A stretch of 10,956 bases of DNA from a virus. The number at the start of each line of letters is the position of its first letter. Within the stretch, counting starts at the first letter, position 1. A program made the position numbers and the translations under genes. Below are positions 3,500 to 10,517 of the stretch, piece by piece. The stretch is from the UHGV virus genome UHGV-0334393; one strand, given 5' to 3'. The notes below the pieces were generated by a model. The model searched no databases, was not told the origin of the DNA, and was given only the letters and a program-made list of their open reading frames with translations.

Positions 3500-3799
3500 A
3501 TGAAACTTAAATATTCTGGCTTAACTGCCAGTGGCAACACTCACCCTAAATTTACGCGCGGTGATATTTACCGCGACCAGTACGGCGGCACGGTAATGAT
3601 TAAGGGCGTGGCGGGACGGTGCGTAACTTACCGCCGTGAAGGTTACGAATATGATTGCGTGATGCCTGTTTATCAGTTCCGGCGTGATTTTTCTCTGGTA
3701 CAGACCGCGCCGCATAACGTGCCCACCAGCAACGCCAGAGCACGGGCAAACATCCAGAAGCTGAAAACAATGATTAACGGATTCAGGGGTAAAAAATGA
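3500..3799 (+). CDS. Hypothetical protein (99 aa)
   Basis: GGAGA Shine-Dalgarno 9 nt upstream; its stop overlaps the primase start (ATGA). No recognisable homology. Confidence 0.6.
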   Translation: MKLKYSGLTASGNTHPKFTRGDIYRDQYGGTVMIKGVAGRCVTYRREGYEYDCVMPVYQFRRDFSLVQTAPHNVPTSNARARANIQKLKTMINGFRGKK

Positions 3800-5928
3800 A
3801 ACTGGCACCGAACGTAAAACAGCAGTCACGCGGCATAAAACACAAAGAAACAGAAGTCATTATTTTTGCGGGTAGTGATGCCTGGTCACACGCAAAACAA
3901 TGGCAGGAACATGACGCGCGTATGGCCGGAGATAATGAGCCTCCTGTGTGGCTTGGGGAGCAGCAGTTATCCGAACTGGATAAGCTGCAAATTGTGCCGG
4001 AAGGCAGAAAATCAGTACGCATATTCAGGGCCGGACATCTTGAGCCAGTAATGATCAAGGCGATTGGTCAGAAACTGGCGGCGGCAGGCGTACAGGATGC
4101 AAATTTTTACCCTGAGGGAATGCACGTTCAGAAGGTGGAGAACTGGCGCGAATATCTGGCCCGTGAGCGGCAGAATCTTTCTGATGGTCTGGTTATTGAG
4201 CTTCCGGTAAAGAAAAAAGATACCGGAAGTCATAGCGATGACGAATTAAAGCCACGCGTTGAAAGTCGCGCCGATGGTGTTTTCTGGGTAACGCCCAAAG
4301 TGGATAAGCAGTCAGGCGAAATTATCCGGCCTGAGACGTGGTTATGTTCTCCGCTTGAACTACTGGGAACGGGGACGATCGGTAAAGAGCATTACCGCGT
4401 GATGCGCTGGAAAAAAACCGCAAACCATGAAGTCATCACAATGGCGATCCCGTGTGGTGGTATCGGCGACCGTGACGGCTGGCGGTTACTTAAAGATCAC
4501 GGGCTGAACGTGACAACCAACGGCAAATACAGGGCAATCCTGGCGGACTGGATGCAGTTAAGCGGAAGCCATGAGGAATGGCAGTTAAGCACAACAACGG
4601 GCTGGCATTTTGGCGCGTACATCATGCCGGACGGTTCGATCATTGGTGATTCTGAAAAACCGATCCTGTTTACCGGAAAAAGCGCCGCGATTAACGGTTA
4701 TTCCGTGGCGGGTACGGCGGAGGGCTGGCGCGAGAGTGTGGCGCGGCTGGCTGGCGGTAATGCCTCAATGATGCTGGGTGTGGCAACGTCACTGGCAGCG
4801 CCTTTAATTGGCCTTGTGGGTGCTGACGGCTTCGGGGTGCATCTTTTCGAACAGTCATCGGCAGGTAAGACCACCACGCAGAACATCGCATCAAGTTTAT
4901 GGGGAGAGCCGGACGCGCAGCGGCTGACCTGGTACGGCACGGCGTTAGGTATTGCCAATGAGGCCGAGGCCCATAATGACGGGCTTTTACCACTGGATGA
5001 GATAGGCCAGGCCGGAAATGCGCGGGAAGTGTCAACGTCTGCTTATACGCTGTTTAACGGTTCAGGGAAATTGCAGGGGGCGAAGGATGGCGGCAACAGG
5101 GAGATCAAACACTGGCGAACGGTGGCAATCAGCACCGGAGAAATGGACGTTGAGACATTCCTCAAAAGTGAGGGGATAAAAGTTAAGGCGGGGCAGCTTG
5201 TCCGACTGCTTAACGTTCCGATGGAAAAAGCCACGAAATTTCACGAATACAGCAACGGTAAGGAACATGCTGACGCGTTAAAGGATGCCTGGACAGCAAA
5301 TCACGGGGCGGCGGGTCGTGAGTGGGTTAAATGGCTGGCAGGCCACCAGCAGGAGGCAAAGGACACGGTAAGGGAATGCCGCGAACGGTGGCGCAACCTG
5401 ATACCGGAGAGTTACGGCGAGCAGGTCCACCGCGTGGGTGAACGTTTCGCCATACTGGAGGCCGCGCTTGTGCTTTCCGGTCATGTAACTGGCTGGGTCG
5501 TGCAGGAATGCCGCGACGCGATACAGCATAACTTTAATGCCTGGGTGAAGGAGTTCGGCACGGGTAACAGGGAATTTAAACAGATGGTTGAACAGGCTGA
5601 GGCGTTTTTGTCGTCGTTTGGGTTTAGCCGCTACCTTCCGTACCCCAATACAGATGAGCGTGATTTACCGATTAAAGAGCTTGCCGGATACAGAAAAGGG
5701 AGCATTCGCAACGAAGATGACGAGATGCGCTATTACACGTTCCCGCACGTGTTTGAGAGTGAGATAGCGAAGGGATTTAATCCGGCGCATTTTGCGCGTG
5801 CCCTGGATGCTGCCGGAATGCTGGAGAAGGGAAGCGATCGCCGATACAAAAAAAAGGCGCTGGGCAAGATTGGGGGTAAGCAGCATGTTTTTTACGTGCT
5901 GATGTTCCAGCCTGATGATGAAGATTAA
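3796..5928 (+). CDS. Replication initiator, primase/helicase type (DUF927/D5-like; SF3-like ATPase domain)
   Basis: 710 aa. Walker A SSAGKTT and Walker B LLPLDEIG motifs in the central region. N-terminal region is consistent with a toprim/primase-like domain. An iteron origin lies immediately downstream, as in PICI pri-rep modules. Confidence 0.9.
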   Translation: MKLAPNVKQQSRGIKHKETEVIIFAGSDAWSHAKQWQEHDARMAGDNEPPVWLGEQQLSELDKLQIVPEGRKSVRIFRAGHLEPVMIKAIGQKLAAAGVQDANFYPEGMHVQKVENWREYLARERQNLSDGLVIELPVKKKDTGSHSDDELKPRVESRADGVFWVTPKVDKQSGEIIRPETWLCSPLELLGTGTIGKEHYRVMRWKKTANHEVITMAIPCGGIGDRDGWRLLKDHGLNVTTNGKYRAILADWMQLSGSHEEWQLSTTTGWHFGAYIMPDGSIIGDSEKPILFTGKSAAINGYSVAGTAEGWRESVARLAGGNASMMLGVATSLAAPLIGLVGADGFGVHLFEQSSAGKTTTQNIASSLWGEPDAQRLTWYGTALGIANEAEAHNDGLLPLDEIGQAGNAREVSTSAYTLFNGSGKLQGAKDGGNREIKHWRTVAISTGEMDVETFLKSEGIKVKAGQLVRLLNVPMEKATKFHEYSNGKEHADALKDAWTANHGAAGREWVKWLAGHQQEAKDTVRECRERWRNLIPESYGEQVHRVGERFAILEAALVLSGHVTGWVVQECRDAIQHNFNAWVKEFGTGNREFKQMVEQAEAFLSSFGFSRYLPYPNTDERDLPIKELAGYRKGSIRNEDDEMRYYTFPHVFESEIAKGFNPAHFARALDAAGMLEKGSDRRYKKKALGKIGGKQHVFYVLMFQPDDED

Positions 5929-6300: not shown

Positions 6301-6552
6301 ATGACCAGAACACGCAGAGACAGAACAGAGCCAAAATATAAAGCGTTAGACATGACTGAGCACACCTTAAAGGTGGCAATCAGAACGATAGACCGCCACA
6401 CGCGGGAAGGATACGCGAAGGAACATCCCGACCTGATAAGCGCATTCATGACCACAGCGGCGGCAAACTTTGCCACGCTGACAGAACGGGAGATTGCCGA
6501 AGCGGAACAGGTAACAACCATCAACGTTAAAACCGGAGAGGTGGAATCATGA
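6301..6552 (+). CDS. Hypothetical protein (83 aa), translationally coupled to ssb
   Basis: GAGGTGG Shine-Dalgarno 5 nt upstream of the ATG at 6301. The tracked ORF start at 6268 lies inside the iterons and has no Shine-Dalgarno. Its stop overlaps the ssb start (ATGA). Confidence 0.6.
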   Translation: MTRTRRDRTEPKYKALDMTEHTLKVAIRTIDRHTREGYAKEHPDLISAFMTTAAANFATLTEREIAEAEQVTTINVKTGEVES

Positions 6553-6959
6553 CAGCACAGATAGCCGCTTACGGGCGGCTGGTGGACGACCCGCAGGTAA
6601 AACAGACCAGCAAGGGCACACCGATGACGCTGGCGCGTATGGCGGTCCCCCTTCCGTGCAGCCAGGCAGATGACGGAACGGCTACGTTATGGCTGTCCGT
6701 CATCGCATTTGGCAAGCAGGCCGACTTCCTGGCTAAACATCAAAAAGGCGACGTTGCCAGCGTATCTGGCGTGATGCAGATAAGCCAGTGGACCGGACAG
6801 AACGGGGAAACGCGGCAGGGTTATCAGGTTATTGCAGACAGCGTAATCAGTGCCCGTGCGGCACGTCCTGGCGGGAACAGACGCAAAACCACAGGCGCAC
6901 AGGGTAATCAGCCACCAGCGGGAGACGATGACCCCTACGGTGATGATATTCCGTTCTGA
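6549..6959 (+). CDS. ssb: Single-stranded DNA-binding protein (short SSB with OB fold and acidic C-terminal tip)
   Basis: 136 aa. Collinear similarity to E. coli SSB (GRLVDDPQVKQT..., W..VIAFGKQADFLAKHQKGD..., ...W.DQ.G..R) and the hallmark C-terminal DDIPF tail after a Gly/Pro/Gln-rich linker. Confidence 0.85.
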   Translation: MTAQIAAYGRLVDDPQVKQTSKGTPMTLARMAVPLPCSQADDGTATLWLSVIAFGKQADFLAKHQKGDVASVSGVMQISQWTGQNGETRQGYQVIADSVISARAARPGGNRRKTTGAQGNQPPAGDDDPYGDDIPF

Positions 6960-7196: not shown

Positions 7197-7403
7197 ATGG
7201 CAGAAGAGAAAAAAGGTGGTGTTTCGGTGTACATAAGCCCCGAAATCGTGGAGGTGCTCAAGCAGCGCCACAAAAAAAACTATGAGGCTGGCGTAGCGGC
7301 TGGACTGGATCCGCTGATGACGCCGGAGCCGTCGATAGGTTCACTTGTGCGCTCTTATTTACTTGCGGCGCTTGGGATGCATAAAAATTATGGGGGTGAA
7401 TAA
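7197..7403 (+). CDS. Hypothetical protein (68 aa), first gene of the capsid operon
   Basis: AGAGGA Shine-Dalgarno; stop overlaps the downstream start (TAATG). No recognisable homology. Confidence 0.6.
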   Translation: MAEEKKGGVSVYISPEIVEVLKQRHKKNYEAGVAAGLDPLMTPEPSIGSLVRSYLLAALGMHKNYGGE

Positions 7404-8458
7404 TGACAGGCAAAGCAACGGCACTTAACACTAACCAGCTTTTCATGTACCTGAATCGCGGGGATATTGCGGATTTTAAATTCAGCCCTCTGTTTACCAC
7501 GCTGTTTTTCCCGAACGTGGCGACATTCAGCACGCAAAACATCATGCTGGATACCCTGGACATTGAAGAAGTCACCATGTCGGCGTTTTGTTCGCCTATG
7601 GTTGGCAGCCAGGTACAGCGCGATAAAGGGTACGAAACCAGCACAATTAAACCTGGCTACATGAAGCCAAAGCACGAAATCGATCCAACGAAAACCATCA
7701 TGCGCATGGCTGGAGAAGATCCGGCACAGCTTAACGACCCTACCTACCGACGTATGCGCCTTATTACTGGCAACATGCGCCGCCAGATAAACGCCATTAA
7801 AGCGCGCGTGGAATGGCTGGCGGTGAATGCGATAACGACCGGAAAAAACATCATTGAGGGCGAAGGCATAGAACGCTATGAAATCGACTGGAAAATACCG
7901 GAAAACTGCATCATAGAGCAGGCCAAGGGTAAAAAATGGTCCGAGCATGATAAAGATATTTACGATCCAATCTATGACATCGAACTATACGCAGATCAGG
8001 CAGGTTGCCCCGCCAACGTCATGATTATGGGCGCTGAGGTATGGCGCACGTTACGCAGCTTTAAAAAATTCCGCGAACTGTACGATCTTTCCCGTGGTTC
8101 AGAATCCGCCGCAGAACTGGCCTGTAAAAACCTGGGTGAAGTAGTGAGCTTTAAAGGCTATCTGGGCGATATTGCCCTTATCGTCTATTCCGGCAAATAC
8201 ACTGACAGCGACGGTACCGAAAAATATTTCCTTGAGCCTGATTTGCTGGTCCTGGGTAACACCAACAACAAAGGGCTGGTGGCCTATGGTGCGATTATGG
8301 ATCAGGAAGCTGTAAGAACAGGCGCAACGCAAAACATGTACTACCCGAAAAACTGGATTGAGGACGGCGATCCGGCGATTGAGTACGTGCAGACGCACAG
8401 CGCACCGCAGCCGGTACCGGCAGACATTCGCAAATTTGTTACCGTCAAAATTGGTTAA
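7403..8458 (+). CDS. Major capsid protein, lambda gpE family
   Basis: 351 aa, collinear with lambda gpE (341 aa) from memory: FKFSPLFTTLFFPN vs FKFDPLFLRLFFRE; PGYMKPKHEIDP vs PGYVKPKHEVNP; YPKNWIEDGDPAIEYVQTHSAP vs YPKNWVTTGDPAREFTMIQSAP. Good Shine-Dalgarno (GGGGGTGA). Confidence 0.9.
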   Translation: MTGKATALNTNQLFMYLNRGDIADFKFSPLFTTLFFPNVATFSTQNIMLDTLDIEEVTMSAFCSPMVGSQVQRDKGYETSTIKPGYMKPKHEIDPTKTIMRMAGEDPAQLNDPTYRRMRLITGNMRRQINAIKARVEWLAVNAITTGKNIIEGEGIERYEIDWKIPENCIIEQAKGKKWSEHDKDIYDPIYDIELYADQAGCPANVMIMGAEVWRTLRSFKKFRELYDLSRGSESAAELACKNLGEVVSFKGYLGDIALIVYSGKYTDSDGTEKYFLEPDLLVLGNTNNKGLVAYGAIMDQEAVRTGATQNMYYPKNWIEDGDPAIEYVQTHSAPQPVPADIRKFVTVKIG

Positions 8459-8469
8459 CTGGGGATTCT

Positions 8470-8805
8470 ATGAACACTCCATACATTGAGTTATTTGCAG
8501 GCAGTCAGCAGGTATCAACGACGCTGGTACATTTTGCCGCTGATGCTGGCTTTATTCAGGAATTTACCCCGCTGATGCTGTCAGACAATGGCGAGTTTAA
8601 GCCGTGGGATGGTCAGGAATCTGGCAAGGCTGTTTATCTGACTTCGTACCCCGTGGACACGTCGACGCAGAAATCAGCACAGTGTTACAAGACGGGGATA
8701 TTTAATATCGCCGCCGTAAACTGGCCTGAGAGCGCCGACACTGACGCGAAAAAATGCGCCGCCTTTGCGGGTTCTGGCGTATCCGTTCAGCCGCTGGCGC
8801 GATAA
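8470..8805 (+). CDS. Head decoration protein, lambda gpD family
   Basis: 111 aa versus lambda gpD at 110 aa. Shared motifs TPLMLSDNGEFKPWDG vs TPLMLDTSSRKLVAWDG and KKCAAFAGSGVSVQ vs KKRTAFAGTAISIV. Immediately downstream of the gpE-like gene. Confidence 0.85.
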   Translation: MNTPYIELFAGSQQVSTTLVHFAADAGFIQEFTPLMLSDNGEFKPWDGQESGKAVYLTSYPVDTSTQKSAQCYKTGIFNIAAVNWPESADTDAKKCAAFAGSGVSVQPLAR

Positions 8806-8817
8806 GCAGGGGAAACG

Positions 8818-9231
8818 ATGGCAACGAATGAAAGCATCATGGCGCTACCGCTGGCGAGTAAATTTAAAGCAGAAGCGCGGGCAATGGCTGACAGAGGTTT
8901 ATCAACCTACGAGGCCGTATATCAACTCAACAAACTGGAAGAGCAGGACAAGCCGCGCGCTGATGCGATTATGGCGCTTCATGAACATAACGACTATCAG
9001 CCGCTGTTACGTGCAATGGCAAACGTGCCATGTATTAGCGTCGATAATGCTCGTGAAATCCTGAACATGACCATAGAGCAGGAGCGCCCAAAGGTTGCGC
9101 CGGAGCTTACCGCAGCCTTTGAAAACTTTATGGACATGCACAGCCCGAAAGCCGTATCACCCGGCATGGCATACGACGGCAGAAACCAGGGCGATGAAGG
9201 CGACGTCGATCGCATACTGAAAACCATCTGA
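8818..9231 (+). CDS. Hypothetical protein (137 aa), last gene of the capsid operon
   Basis: AGGGGAA Shine-Dalgarno; followed directly by a terminator. No convincing similarity to lambda FI, W or Nu3 by eye. Confidence 0.7.
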   Translation: MATNESIMALPLASKFKAEARAMADRGLSTYEAVYQLNKLEEQDKPRADAIMALHEHNDYQPLLRAMANVPCISVDNAREILNMTIEQERPKVAPELTAAFENFMDMHSPKAVSPGMAYDGRNQGDEGDVDRILKTI

Positions 9232-9237
9232 CATAAG

Positions 9238-9260
9238 GCCGGAGAAATCCGGCTTTTTTT
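9238..9260 (+). terminator. Rho-independent terminator (stem GCCGGA / TCCGGC, loop GAAA, T7); near-identical copy of the hairpin at 6968..6989
   Basis: Hairpin plus T7 run 7 nt after the stop of the 137-aa ORF. Confidence 0.75.
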
Positions 9261-9330
9261 ACGGGTCCTTTCCGGCATATGGACCCGTTACGGGGCGGCG
9301 ACCTCGCGCGTTTTCGCTATTTATGAGCCT
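9261..9330 (+). other. cos site 1 (plus orientation): lambda-like cosQ (9261..9292), cosN 12-nt cohesive-end sequence GGGCGGCGACCT (9293..9304), and the start of cosB (CGCGCGTTTTCGCTATTTATGA), diverging after about 9328
   Basis: ACGGGTCCTTTCCGG...GTTACG|GGGCGGCGACCT|CGCG.GTTTTCGCTATTTATGA matches the lambda right-end/left-end junction as recalled. Downstream sequence up to the terS start differs from lambda cosB. Confidence 0.8.
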
Positions 9331-9437
9331 TTTCAGGGGGGTGGTGGTGGTTTTGTTGTTTGCTCTATCTTTATGAATGAAAAGGGAAAGATGCAAACAA
9401 TACACCAACCTGAAGCAGTAATTAAGTTGGTGTATTA

Positions 9438-9980
9438 ATGAAATCGCACCTGATGAACAAAAAAAACATGGCGAAAAGCTGCCGTGTAAGTGCGACAGCG
9501 TTCGACAAGTGGGGAGTGACTCCCGTTGAACGTAAAGGCCGTGAGGCGTTTTATGATGTTGCCAGCGTGATAGACAATAGGGTTAACAATGCAATTAGCC
9601 AGCTTACAAACGACAAAGGCGATATTGATGATGATGAACTCTTACGAGTCAGGATCAGATTACTGACAGCACAGGCGGAGGCGCAGGAACTTAAAAACGA
9701 GCGCGATCGCGGTGACGTGATTGATACTGAGTTTTGCCTGTACGCGCTTTCAAAGCTGGCGAGTCAGATTTCATCAATCATGGACAGCCTCCCGCTTACT
9801 ATGCAAAGGAGCTTCCCACAGATTACCCCCGCCATGCTGGACAGGCTTAAAAGGGAAGTGGTTAAAGCCTGTAATGCCAGTGCCAGAGTTGCCGACAACC
9901 TCCCACAGATACTGGCTGATTACTTGAAAGAAACAACCGGAAACGTACCGGAAAAGTTGCTACAGAAGAAAGGCAAGTAA
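9438..9980 (+). CDS. Terminase small subunit, lambda Nu1 family (island-encoded TerS)
   Basis: 180 aa versus Nu1 at 181 aa. Strong central similarity: LLTAQAEAQELKNERDRGDVIDTEFCLYALSKLASQISSIMDSLPLTMQRSFPQI vs Nu1 LTRAQADAQELKNARDSAEVVETAFCTFVLSRIAGEIASILDGLPLSVQRRFPEL. The N-terminal HTH region is also alignable (NKK..., YD.A.VI). Lies directly downstream of cos 1, as in lambda. Confidence 0.85.
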   Translation: MKSHLMNKKNMAKSCRVSATAFDKWGVTPVERKGREAFYDVASVIDNRVNNAISQLTNDKGDIDDDELLRVRIRLLTAQAEAQELKNERDRGDVIDTEFCLYALSKLASQISSIMDSLPLTMQRSFPQITPAMLDRLKREVVKACNASARVADNLPQILADYLKETTGNVPEKLLQKKGK

Positions 9981-10006
9981 CAGAAGCGCAATTATTGAAC
10001 AAAAAT

Positions 10007-10202
10007 GAGAAAGGATCTGATAATGGCATTTTCTGGCTAAAATGCCTCGTGTCAGATCCTTTCTTTTTTTAATATTTTCATTGTTAAACAGTCTGTTACA
10101 GAGAAGAAGAACGGATCTGACTTTTGCCGGAAAATTTTCATAAACAGATAAAAACCGCGAGGTCGCCGCCCCGTAACGGGCCATAATTCCAGGAAGGACC
10201 CG
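10007..10202 (-). other. cos site 2 (minus orientation): cosQ-like (10172..10202), cosN (complement of 10160..10171), and a canonical lambdoid cosB with three R-site-like repeats (AGAAAGGATCTGA 10008..10020, TCAGATCCTTTCT 10052..10064, AGAACGGATCTGA 10108..10120) and an AT-rich IHF-like segment
   Basis: The reverse complement reads GGGCGGCGACCTCGCGGTTTTTATCTGTTTATGAAAATTTTCCGG...CCGTTCTTCTTC..., near-collinear with the recalled lambda left end through cosB. The middle repeat is inverted relative to the outer two. Confidence 0.8.
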
Positions 10203-10235
10203 ACGACACCAGACTATCAGAACGATGGGGGCACA

Positions 10236-10517
10236 ATGACAGAAGCCGAAATACTGGGATTAATCCGCCGCGTTGCCGGAATCAGCCAGCAGGTTGACGA
10301 ACAGGCCACGCAGCCGGACAGCGTGACCGCTGAAAATTATGCGCGTGTTGTTGCGGAGGTGATGCGCCGTGATGGTATAGAACTTAATGGCGTGGATATG
10401 CGCAACATACGAACCAGAGTTCTTGAGTTGCTGGCCTACCGTCGCCGTGTGGAGATGTATCGGGAGAAGGAGAAAATAACGTACCACTGGAAGAAGCCGG
10501 AGCGGTTGCGGCGGTAA
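10236..10517 (+). CDS. Hypothetical protein (93 aa)
   Basis: GGGGG-type Shine-Dalgarno 6 nt upstream of the ATG; plausible amino-acid composition; no recognisable homology. Confidence 0.5.
   Translation: MTEAEILGLIRRVAGISQQVDEQATQPDSVTAENYARVVAEVMRRDGIELNGVDMRNIRTRVLELLAYRRRVEMYREKEKITYHWKKPERLRR

Follow-up and report, generated by a model that had tools for sequence, protein, structure and literature searches.

A predicted full-length Nu1-family small terminase with a putative N15/Monarch-type cosB in a phage-inducible chromosomal island of Escherichia coli

Packaging of cos-type phage-inducible chromosomal islands (PICIs) in Escherichia coli has been worked out for a single mechanism, that of the Rpp proteins, which depends on the small terminase (TerS) of the helper phage. 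Murialdo and Feiss propose that the helper TerS supplies binding to the large terminase (TerL) for Rpp (PMC9026076). Helper-dependent induction, packaging and transfer were demonstrated for the island EcCICFT073 (PMC6092414). We analysed the virus genome UHGV-0334393, a stretch of 10,956 nucleotides (hereafter the window) which, judged by its gene content, is an EcCICFT073-family PICI of E. coli. An open reading frame (ORF) at 9438-9980 on the plus strand, between two inverted cos sites (cos1 and cos2), occupies the slot held by rppA in EcCICFT073, and sequence comparisons identify its product as a complete TerS of the Nu1/N15-gp1 family. We consider it likely that this protein reads cos1 and recruits the helper TerL directly.

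The locus has much in common with the RppA/RppC systems of EcCICFT073-type PICIs (Fillol-Salom et al. 2019, PMC6739421): the island family, the slot between cos1 and an inverted cos2, flanking genes with 91% DNA identity and, as predicted here, recognition by a protein of the island of a cosB specific to it, next to helper-type cosN and cosQ. Unlike Rpp proteins (135-154 amino acids, aa), the island TerS has 180 aa, and BLASTP, run against RppA, detected no similarity (best E 1.3). It keeps the central and C-terminal TerS regions, hence the prediction that it binds TerL directly and not via the helper TerS. Another parallel is the TerS of pac-type Staphylococcus aureus pathogenicity islands (SaPIs; Ubeda et al. 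2007, cited in PMC6739421), which, in that cited account, is a satellite small terminase that pairs with the helper large terminase and recognises satellite DNA only. The two systems differ: the TerS families are different, SaPI packaging is headful from pac while the island uses cos, and SaPIs need a separate protein, Ppi, to block the helper TerS.

Several searches converged on the identity of the protein. By BLASTP, the lambda-type Nu1 of phage O276 is 35% identical over TerS residues 6-166 (E 1e-34) and N15 gp1 is 46% identical over residues 5-166 (E 2e-53). The PHROG family phrog_57 ('terminase small subunit') covered residues 1-174 (E 3e-53), and Pfam Phage_Nu1 (PF07471) scored 83 bits against a cut-off of 30 (E 2.3e-23), matching residues 33-148 only. 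A profile built from 13 TerS sequences found the lambda TerS 1-98 structure in the PDB (chain 6hn7_B, profile positions 6-84, E 7e-6); the same database searched with the single TerS sequence gave no match, neither Nu1 nor Rpp. NCBIfam had no matches for any island protein, and the existing annotation of the gene by the Prokaryotic Genome Annotation Pipeline (PGAP) is already 'terminase small subunit'.

The predicted layout has the same three parts as lambda Nu1, namely a winged helix-turn-helix (residues ~1-50; strand, helix, helix, hairpin, helix in a low-confidence AlphaFold2 model), a helical oligomerisation region (~65-125) and a TerL-binding-like tail (~126-166), followed by a 14-aa extension. 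The DNA-binding domain differs from that of Nu1 by missing the lambda wing and helix insertions. The central and C-terminal regions align to the family without truncation, with a ratio of nonsynonymous to synonymous substitution rates (dN/dS) below 0.26. Two statements of the initial annotation, which was made from the sequence alone, therefore find support in these searches: that the protein can be aligned to lambda Nu1 along its length, and that it is a small terminase and not an unrelated TerS-binding factor. A truncated Nu1 fragment, an alternative that it had named, was rejected, as the alignment runs over the full length and purifying selection was detected in every domain. We also rejected an Rpp-like small factor as the identity of the protein: in RppA the match to the TerS family is confined to the first ~47 residues, the island protein is longer, and it has the C-terminal segment that Rpps lack (PMC9026076). 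The ORF thus appears to encode an intact, full-length Nu1-family TerS.

Within the family, the island TerS is best described as a mosaic, in which an N15-type DNA-binding domain is joined to a tail closest to those of PhiR5_1/PhiR12-type lambdoid phages. The first 54 residues matched N15-type phage TerS only (N15, one Enterobacter phage, one Alteromonas phage and Pseudomonas phages), with no lambda-type matches, and this same-type domain is 62% identical to N15 gp1 over residues 5-51. For residues 104-180 the best matches were PhiR5_1 (55%) and PhiR12 phages (52%), with N15 and lambda at about 40%; residues 61-167 are 50% identical to PhiR12_2. The TerL N-termini are divided in a similar manner: 48 of 60 residues are identical between lambda and N15, whose TerS tails are also similar, and 32-34 of 60 between PhiR5_1 and either of them. 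When island homologues were compared, identity was highest in the DNA-binding domain (74-96%) and lowest in the tail (29-63%); one homologue (L013) has a lambda/N15-class tail instead. The dN/dS ratio was 0.10-0.26 overall and 0.15-0.25 in the tail. Synonymous divergence (dS) differed about ten-fold between segments, which indicates recombination.

These data bear on a second way in which the protein could act. As Rpp proteins do (PMC6739421), it could form mixed oligomers with the helper TerS via the conserved central helical region, poisoning helper packaging and redirecting the complex to cos1; the helper TerS would then still be required. The position of terS in the rppA slot between cos1 and cos2 fits such a mode, and it is in the central region (residues 71-125) that the protein resembles phage TerS most closely (51% identity to N15). 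On the other hand, a TerL-binding-like tail would be superfluous if the helper TerS supplied TerL binding, yet the tail is under purifying selection, and similarity to RppA does not extend beyond the shared N-terminal domain family. We therefore regard an Rpp-like mode as unlikely, although it is compatible with direct recruitment of TerL.

The DNA in front of terS points in the same direction as the N-terminal domain. At the left end of cos1, a cosQ-like GGGTCCT (9263..9269, plus strand) has the sequence and the cosN spacing found in lambda-like phages; we take cosQ to be this 7-mer. The cosN of cos1 (9293..9304, plus strand), located 145 nt upstream of the terS ATG, has a cohesive end, GGGCGGCGACCT, identical to that of lambda, and the cosN-to-R3 spacer (9305..9334, plus strand) is conserved with lambda-like phages and EcCICFT073. 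The cos1 flank is 95.8% identical to PhiR5_1. Phage blastn matches end near 9334, the point where EcCICFT073 homology also breaks. That the DNA between cosN and the start codon differs from lambda cosB, as first proposed, was borne out by what follows: we read 9305-9437 as a cosB of N15/Monarch type, presumably cognate to the island TerS, and rejected a lambda-like identity for it.

A predicted R3-equivalent lies at 9340..9363 (plus strand; bp 48-71 from the cohesive end) and consists of (GGT)4 followed by the core TGGTGGTTTTGTTGTT (9345-9360), which is the R3 core of the E. coli islands. It contains most of a G-rich tract, GGGGGGTGGTGGTGG, at 9336-9350; the initial annotation had recognised this (GGT)n tract but placed its start at 9335. 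The N15 R3 was mapped at bp 48-59/60 from the cohesive end (PMC4669245, PMC9026076), and scrambling bp 54-59 (GTTGTT) in N15 cuts yield about 100-fold (Feiss et al., PMC4669245). The island has its (GKT)n R3 at the equal distance from cosN, bp 48-60 being 9340-9352 (GGTGGTGGTGGTT). When islands and enterobacterial N15-type phages were scanned for (GKT)3, the tract started at bp 48-52 from cosN in 13 of 15 loci; two Trabulsiella/Erwinia loci among the 15 had no mapped cosN. One island (L010), with two GGT units, is below the (GKT)3 pattern and keeps the R3 core. A regular expression that demanded one or more additional TGG units besides the R3 core matched 47 of 55 island loci from IMG/VR. The copy number of (GGT)n varies from 2 to 5 among islands (9336-9351 and homologues) in a manner that resembles slippage within the R3 region, and the cosN-to-ATG distance changes with it from 145 to 142 or 139 nt (L010, L056).

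A predicted R2-like site (9393..9410, minus strand) is an inverted copy of R3, with 14 of 18 bases shared. The pattern A[AC][TC]ACACC[AC]AC, which describes it, was found in 54/55 IMG/VR island loci. Its ACACCAAC is invariant in E. coli lineages, and the corresponding arm in Enterobacter, Kosakonia and Superficieibacter islands, AATACACCCAC, is one base different from the E. coli relatives. The R2-like site holds the left arm, AATACACCAAC, of an inverted repeat whose right arm, AGTTGGTGTATT (9425..9436, plus strand), has one mismatch to the R2 site. Two Monarch-like prophages (L014/L015) have GGTGGTTGTTGTTTAA (plus), AATACAACAACC (minus) and GGTTGTTGTTTCG (plus) at the corresponding places, and from this three-site layout we predict that the right arm is a lineage-specific, R1-like third copy. 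The 'Monarch' prophage group combines an N15-type R3 and recognition helix with three R sites (Feiss et al. 2015, PMC4669245), and the order R3, inverted R2, R1 is common to that group, to L014/L015 and to the island. Unlike N15 and Monarch phages, the island shows no IHF consensus between R3 and R2 (none in the cos1 cosB with up to one mismatch), and a search of terS for an N15-style rR2 copy of R3 found none. The cohesive end is that of lambda and not that of N15. From lambda the island shares cosQ, cosN and spacer, as well as R sites in plus/minus/plus orientation upstream of the gene; it differs in R sequences unrelated to CGTTTCC and in a shorter cosB, with 133 nt from cosN to the ATG compared with 178 nt in lambda.

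The inverted repeat itself allows a further explanation, namely that it forms an RNA hairpin sequestering the ribosome-binding region of terS and thereby controlling its translation. The repeat is real and somewhat longer than first annotated, with 11 perfect base pairs (9399-9409 / 9426-9436) instead of 9, a 16-nt loop, and an end 1 nt, not 2 nt, before the ATG. Repeats of this length appeared in only 3 of 5,000 shuffles of 9305-9437, the RNA fold is stable (-18.1 kcal/mol, z = -3.8), and the 3' arm covers the sole Shine-Dalgarno-like sequence, a weak GGUG. Comparative data argue the other way. In 11 distinct relatives, positions 9402-9409 of the left arm never change (position 9401 varies between T and C) while the right arm drifts; there were no compensatory changes, 6 of the 11 pairs are broken, and pairing holds in 76% of cells. 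Just 13 of the 55 IMG/VR loci have a perfect repeat, the right arm elsewhere being GTGGGGATATT, GTTGGGATATT or GTTGTGGTATC; other lineages have a better Shine-Dalgarno sequence (GGGGA, AGAGGT) in place of the right arm, and the left-arm sequence is conserved in other genera without its partner. We therefore rejected the repeat as a conserved RNA structure, and control of terS by such a hairpin seems improbable. The proposed occlusion of the terS start does not stand as a general feature; it is physically possible in this lineage only. The repeat is better read as an R2-like/R1-like pair of putative TerS sites, any effect on translation being lineage-specific and secondary.

Protein and DNA vary together. 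All 13 island TerS sequences have a recognition helix of the form S-x-T-AFDKW together with GGTGG-type R sites, and all seven enterobacterial N15-type phage TerS have S-V-Q-AFDKW together with GTTGT-type R sites. The island thus differs from N15/Monarch phages by T in place of Q in the helix, and by GGTGG in place of GTTGT in the R sites, including the bp 54-59 that are critical in N15. In a side-by-side reading of pairwise alignments, the varying T/Q position aligns with lambda R17 and with RppA R21; an RppA R21A/T22A mutant loses cos1-specific packaging (PMC6739421), and lambda and 21 fail to package N15 DNA (Feiss et al., PMC4669245). Because recognition helix and R sites diverge together from their phage relatives, this co-variation supports a diverged, private specificity of the island TerS and its cosB, and is the best available support for it. 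The private packaging specificity put forward in the initial annotation fits a cosB that is non-lambda and co-varies with the recognition helix, at the level of sequence.

According to the reading that we favour, in which the island TerS reads cos1 and recruits the helper TerL directly, helper-induced excision and replication would be followed by binding of TerS dimers, through the N15-type winged helix-turn-helix, to the R3-equivalent (9340-9363), to the R2-like site in inverted orientation (9393-9410) and to a third site that this lineage has, the R1-like one (9425-9436). The C-terminal tail, of the PhiR5_1/PhiR12 class, would recruit the helper large terminase, which would nick the lambda-identical cosN (9293-9304), and packaging would proceed rightward to the next cos1. 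As lambda- and 21-type helper TerS read different R sequences, cos1 should be addressable by the island TerS only; as the island TerS has a TerL-binding-like tail of its own, unlike Rpp, the helper TerS should be dispensable.

Several observations weigh against this proposal. Helpers of N15/Monarch type, if present, might read cos1, which would make it non-private. In a few islands, variation of (GGT)n displaces R3 from its register by 3-6 bp, and such shifts are harmful in lambda (PMC4669245). The AlphaFold2 model of TerS is poor (pLDDT, the model's confidence score, 58.7), and a Foldseek search of the PDB with it gave nothing below E 0.3 and is uninformative. Finally, a promoter scan detected no sigma-70-like promoter between an upstream terminator-like hairpin (9237-9260) and the terS ATG.

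The genomic setting suggests that terS was exchanged together with its sites. EcCICFT073 and the window share 91% DNA identity up to 9334 and again from 10127, and nothing aligns between. As EcCICFT073 homology breaks inside both inverted cos arms, terS and both cosB regions appear to replace rppA as one cassette. This variable 'specificity cassette' of cosB1, terS and cosB2 (9335..10126) stands in place of cosB1, rppA and cosB2 of EcCICFT073 (L005:2601-3264). It is bounded by conserved inverted cosQ-cosN arms at 9262-9337 and 10127-10202, which form a 76-nt inverted repeat with 79% complementarity. At the R3 position, cos1 of EcCICFT073 (L005:2606-2623) has GGTGACACCACCACCAC, whose conserved (ACC)3 core is the reverse complement of the (GGT)n of the window (9340-9351), shifted by ~7 bp.

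The second site, cos2, has the opposite orientation and a different cosB. On the minus strand, 10002..10121 has a lambda-like cosB layout with the R core CAGATCC, comprising R3 (10104-10121), an IHF-like site (10070-10082), R2 (10051-10068) and R1 (10002-10020). The cosN of cos2 (10160..10171, minus strand) also reads GGGCGGCGACCT on that strand, and a cosQ-like GGGTCCT lies to its right. The SerU-LTIIb remnant prophage (L004:6500-7146) shares the CAGATCC R3/R2/R1 layout. The TerS of that remnant has a lambda-type N-terminus and is truncated, with 139 aa, ending inside the central domain. When cos2 (window 10002-10202) was compared with loci L061-L064, L072, L075-L079 and L092-L102, islands with 96-100% identical TerS had CAGATCC or CATGTCGG as the R core of the cos2 cosB, a 93% TerS lineage had the CGTGTCGG type, and more distant lineages had a different cos2 cos, with the end GGGCGGGAGCAT, or no cos2. 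The cos1 site, R3 and R2 are kept in all lineages while cos2 is swapped or missing, which makes cos1 and terS the constant part of the cassette and cos2 the variable one; cos2 has the look of a second address that is matched to the helper and dispensable. Both cos sites of EcCICFT073 are functional (PMC6092414), and cos1 is the one that transfer requires (PMC6739421), in agreement with a constant cos1. In a separate observation, the cohesive end of cos1 varies among islands while cosB1 is constant, with GGGCGTCGACCT, GGGCGTCAGGCG, GGGCGGAAGGCG, GGGCGGAGACCT, GGGCGGCAGACG and GGGCGGCAGACT seen in L010, L011, L057, L060, L070, L080-L088, L099, L102 and L012.

A complete lambda-like cosB in cos2 would also suit an explanation in which terS is a functionless remnant of a degraded lambdoid prophage and the island is packaged only via cos2, by the helper TerS, and the activity of both EcCICFT073 sites is compatible with it. 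We find this hard to credit: purifying selection acts on an intact ORF, 768 genomes conserve it and always at the same island position, several lineages without cos2 keep cos1 and terS, and EcCICFT073 transfer needs cos1 rather than cos2.

The context of terS is not that of a phage gene. Unlike in N15 and Monarch phages, it lies on a ~10-kb satellite without an adjacent TerL: the next ORF in the window encodes 93 aa and is not TerL. Relatives in genome contigs, which were recovered with an alignment-based query and not with a single-protein query, had, in 37 of 42 cases, an ORF of ~630-700 codons that overlaps the TerS stop or lies next to it; of the other five, two are cut by contig ends, one is ambiguous and two are without the ORF. 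These two, from Kosakonia (56%) and Superficieibacter (54%), are the closest relatives. No TerL follows terS in L012/L013, and among the IMG/VR island-type TerS loci (54-100% identity) none of 55 had a following ORF larger than 230 aa. By its sequence, then, the island TerS is a member of the Nu1/N15 family in a non-phage context. Among 5,426 complete genomes of E. coli, 768 gave matches to terS, O157:H7 strains and ATCC 25922 being among them, and 97 gave matches to rppA, that is, about eight times as many for terS at the sensitivity of megablast, with which divergent Rpp genes such as rppC are undetectable. Published PICI gene maps mark terS genes, and our literature search returned no paper describing a Nu1-type TerS, its cosB or its mechanism in E. 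coli PICIs.

The remainder of the window has the core set of a Gram-negative PICI, as defined by the SatelliteFinder components that include a small terminase (10.1101/2022.09.14.508007). Within ~10 kb it carries an integrase (482-1720), an AlpA regulator (2043-2339), a DUF927 primase (3796-5928) as primase-replicase, a capsid-related gene and the small terminase, without tail or lysis genes; an SSB gene lies at 6549-6959. Strain OkiPb01685 has the same element, ~11 kb, between rcnR and thiM, with 99.6% identity over the 1,051 bases compared (9200-10250). Genes for a gpE-like capsid protein (7403-8458) and a gpD-like decoration protein (8470-8805) precede a 137-aa ORF (8818-9231) just upstream of cos1, and the right-hand order in EcCICFT073 is capsid, decoration, 137-aa ORF, cos1, RppA (144 aa), inverted cos2 and 93-aa ORF. 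The 137-aa ORF matches the C-terminal part of a head-maturation-protease family (phrog_53 positions 494-567, E 1.5e-9) and could be a Nu3-like scaffold piece; taken together, this ORF and the genes for the gpE-like and gpD-like proteins suggest a module for capsid remodelling. Between this ORF and cos1, direct reading revealed an intrinsic-terminator-like hairpin (9237..9260, plus strand; GCCGGA-GAAA-TCCGGC, then T7) that the promoter/terminator consensus scan had missed; the same element precedes cos1 in EcCICFT073. Other island lineages have an AlpA-like helix-turn-helix ORF in place of the 137-aa ORF. In three Enterobacter contigs (L007-L009, 4001-12510), a homologous island with capsid, decoration, AlpA-like, TerS and integrase genes directly adjoins a gpE gene truncated to 254 aa, after which come lambda-like FI, Z, U and tail genes; this places the island within the head region of a lambdoid prophage, or fused to it.

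If direct recruitment of TerL is correct, the island would provide the cos-phage counterpart of the SaPI TerS strategy, a natural test of recombining a TerS DNA-binding domain, R sites and a TerL-binding tail, and, for the engineering of packaging, an orthogonal cos/TerS pair that already exists. It would also put the idea of Murialdo and Feiss to a concrete test, the C-terminal tail being what Rpps lack. More tentatively, cos1-terS-cos2 may be a swappable 'packaging address cassette', in which an N15-derived DNA-binding domain and GGTGG-type R sites form a constant, island-private part, and the TerL-binding tail, the cohesive end and the cos2 cosB are exchanged to match local lambdoid helpers. 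Such a cassette would mean TerL piracy independent of the helper TerS and two addresses, one used by the island TerS at cos1 and the other by the helper TerS at cos2. Among cos-type PICIs of E. coli, no packaging strategy would then be more common, the characterised RppA included.

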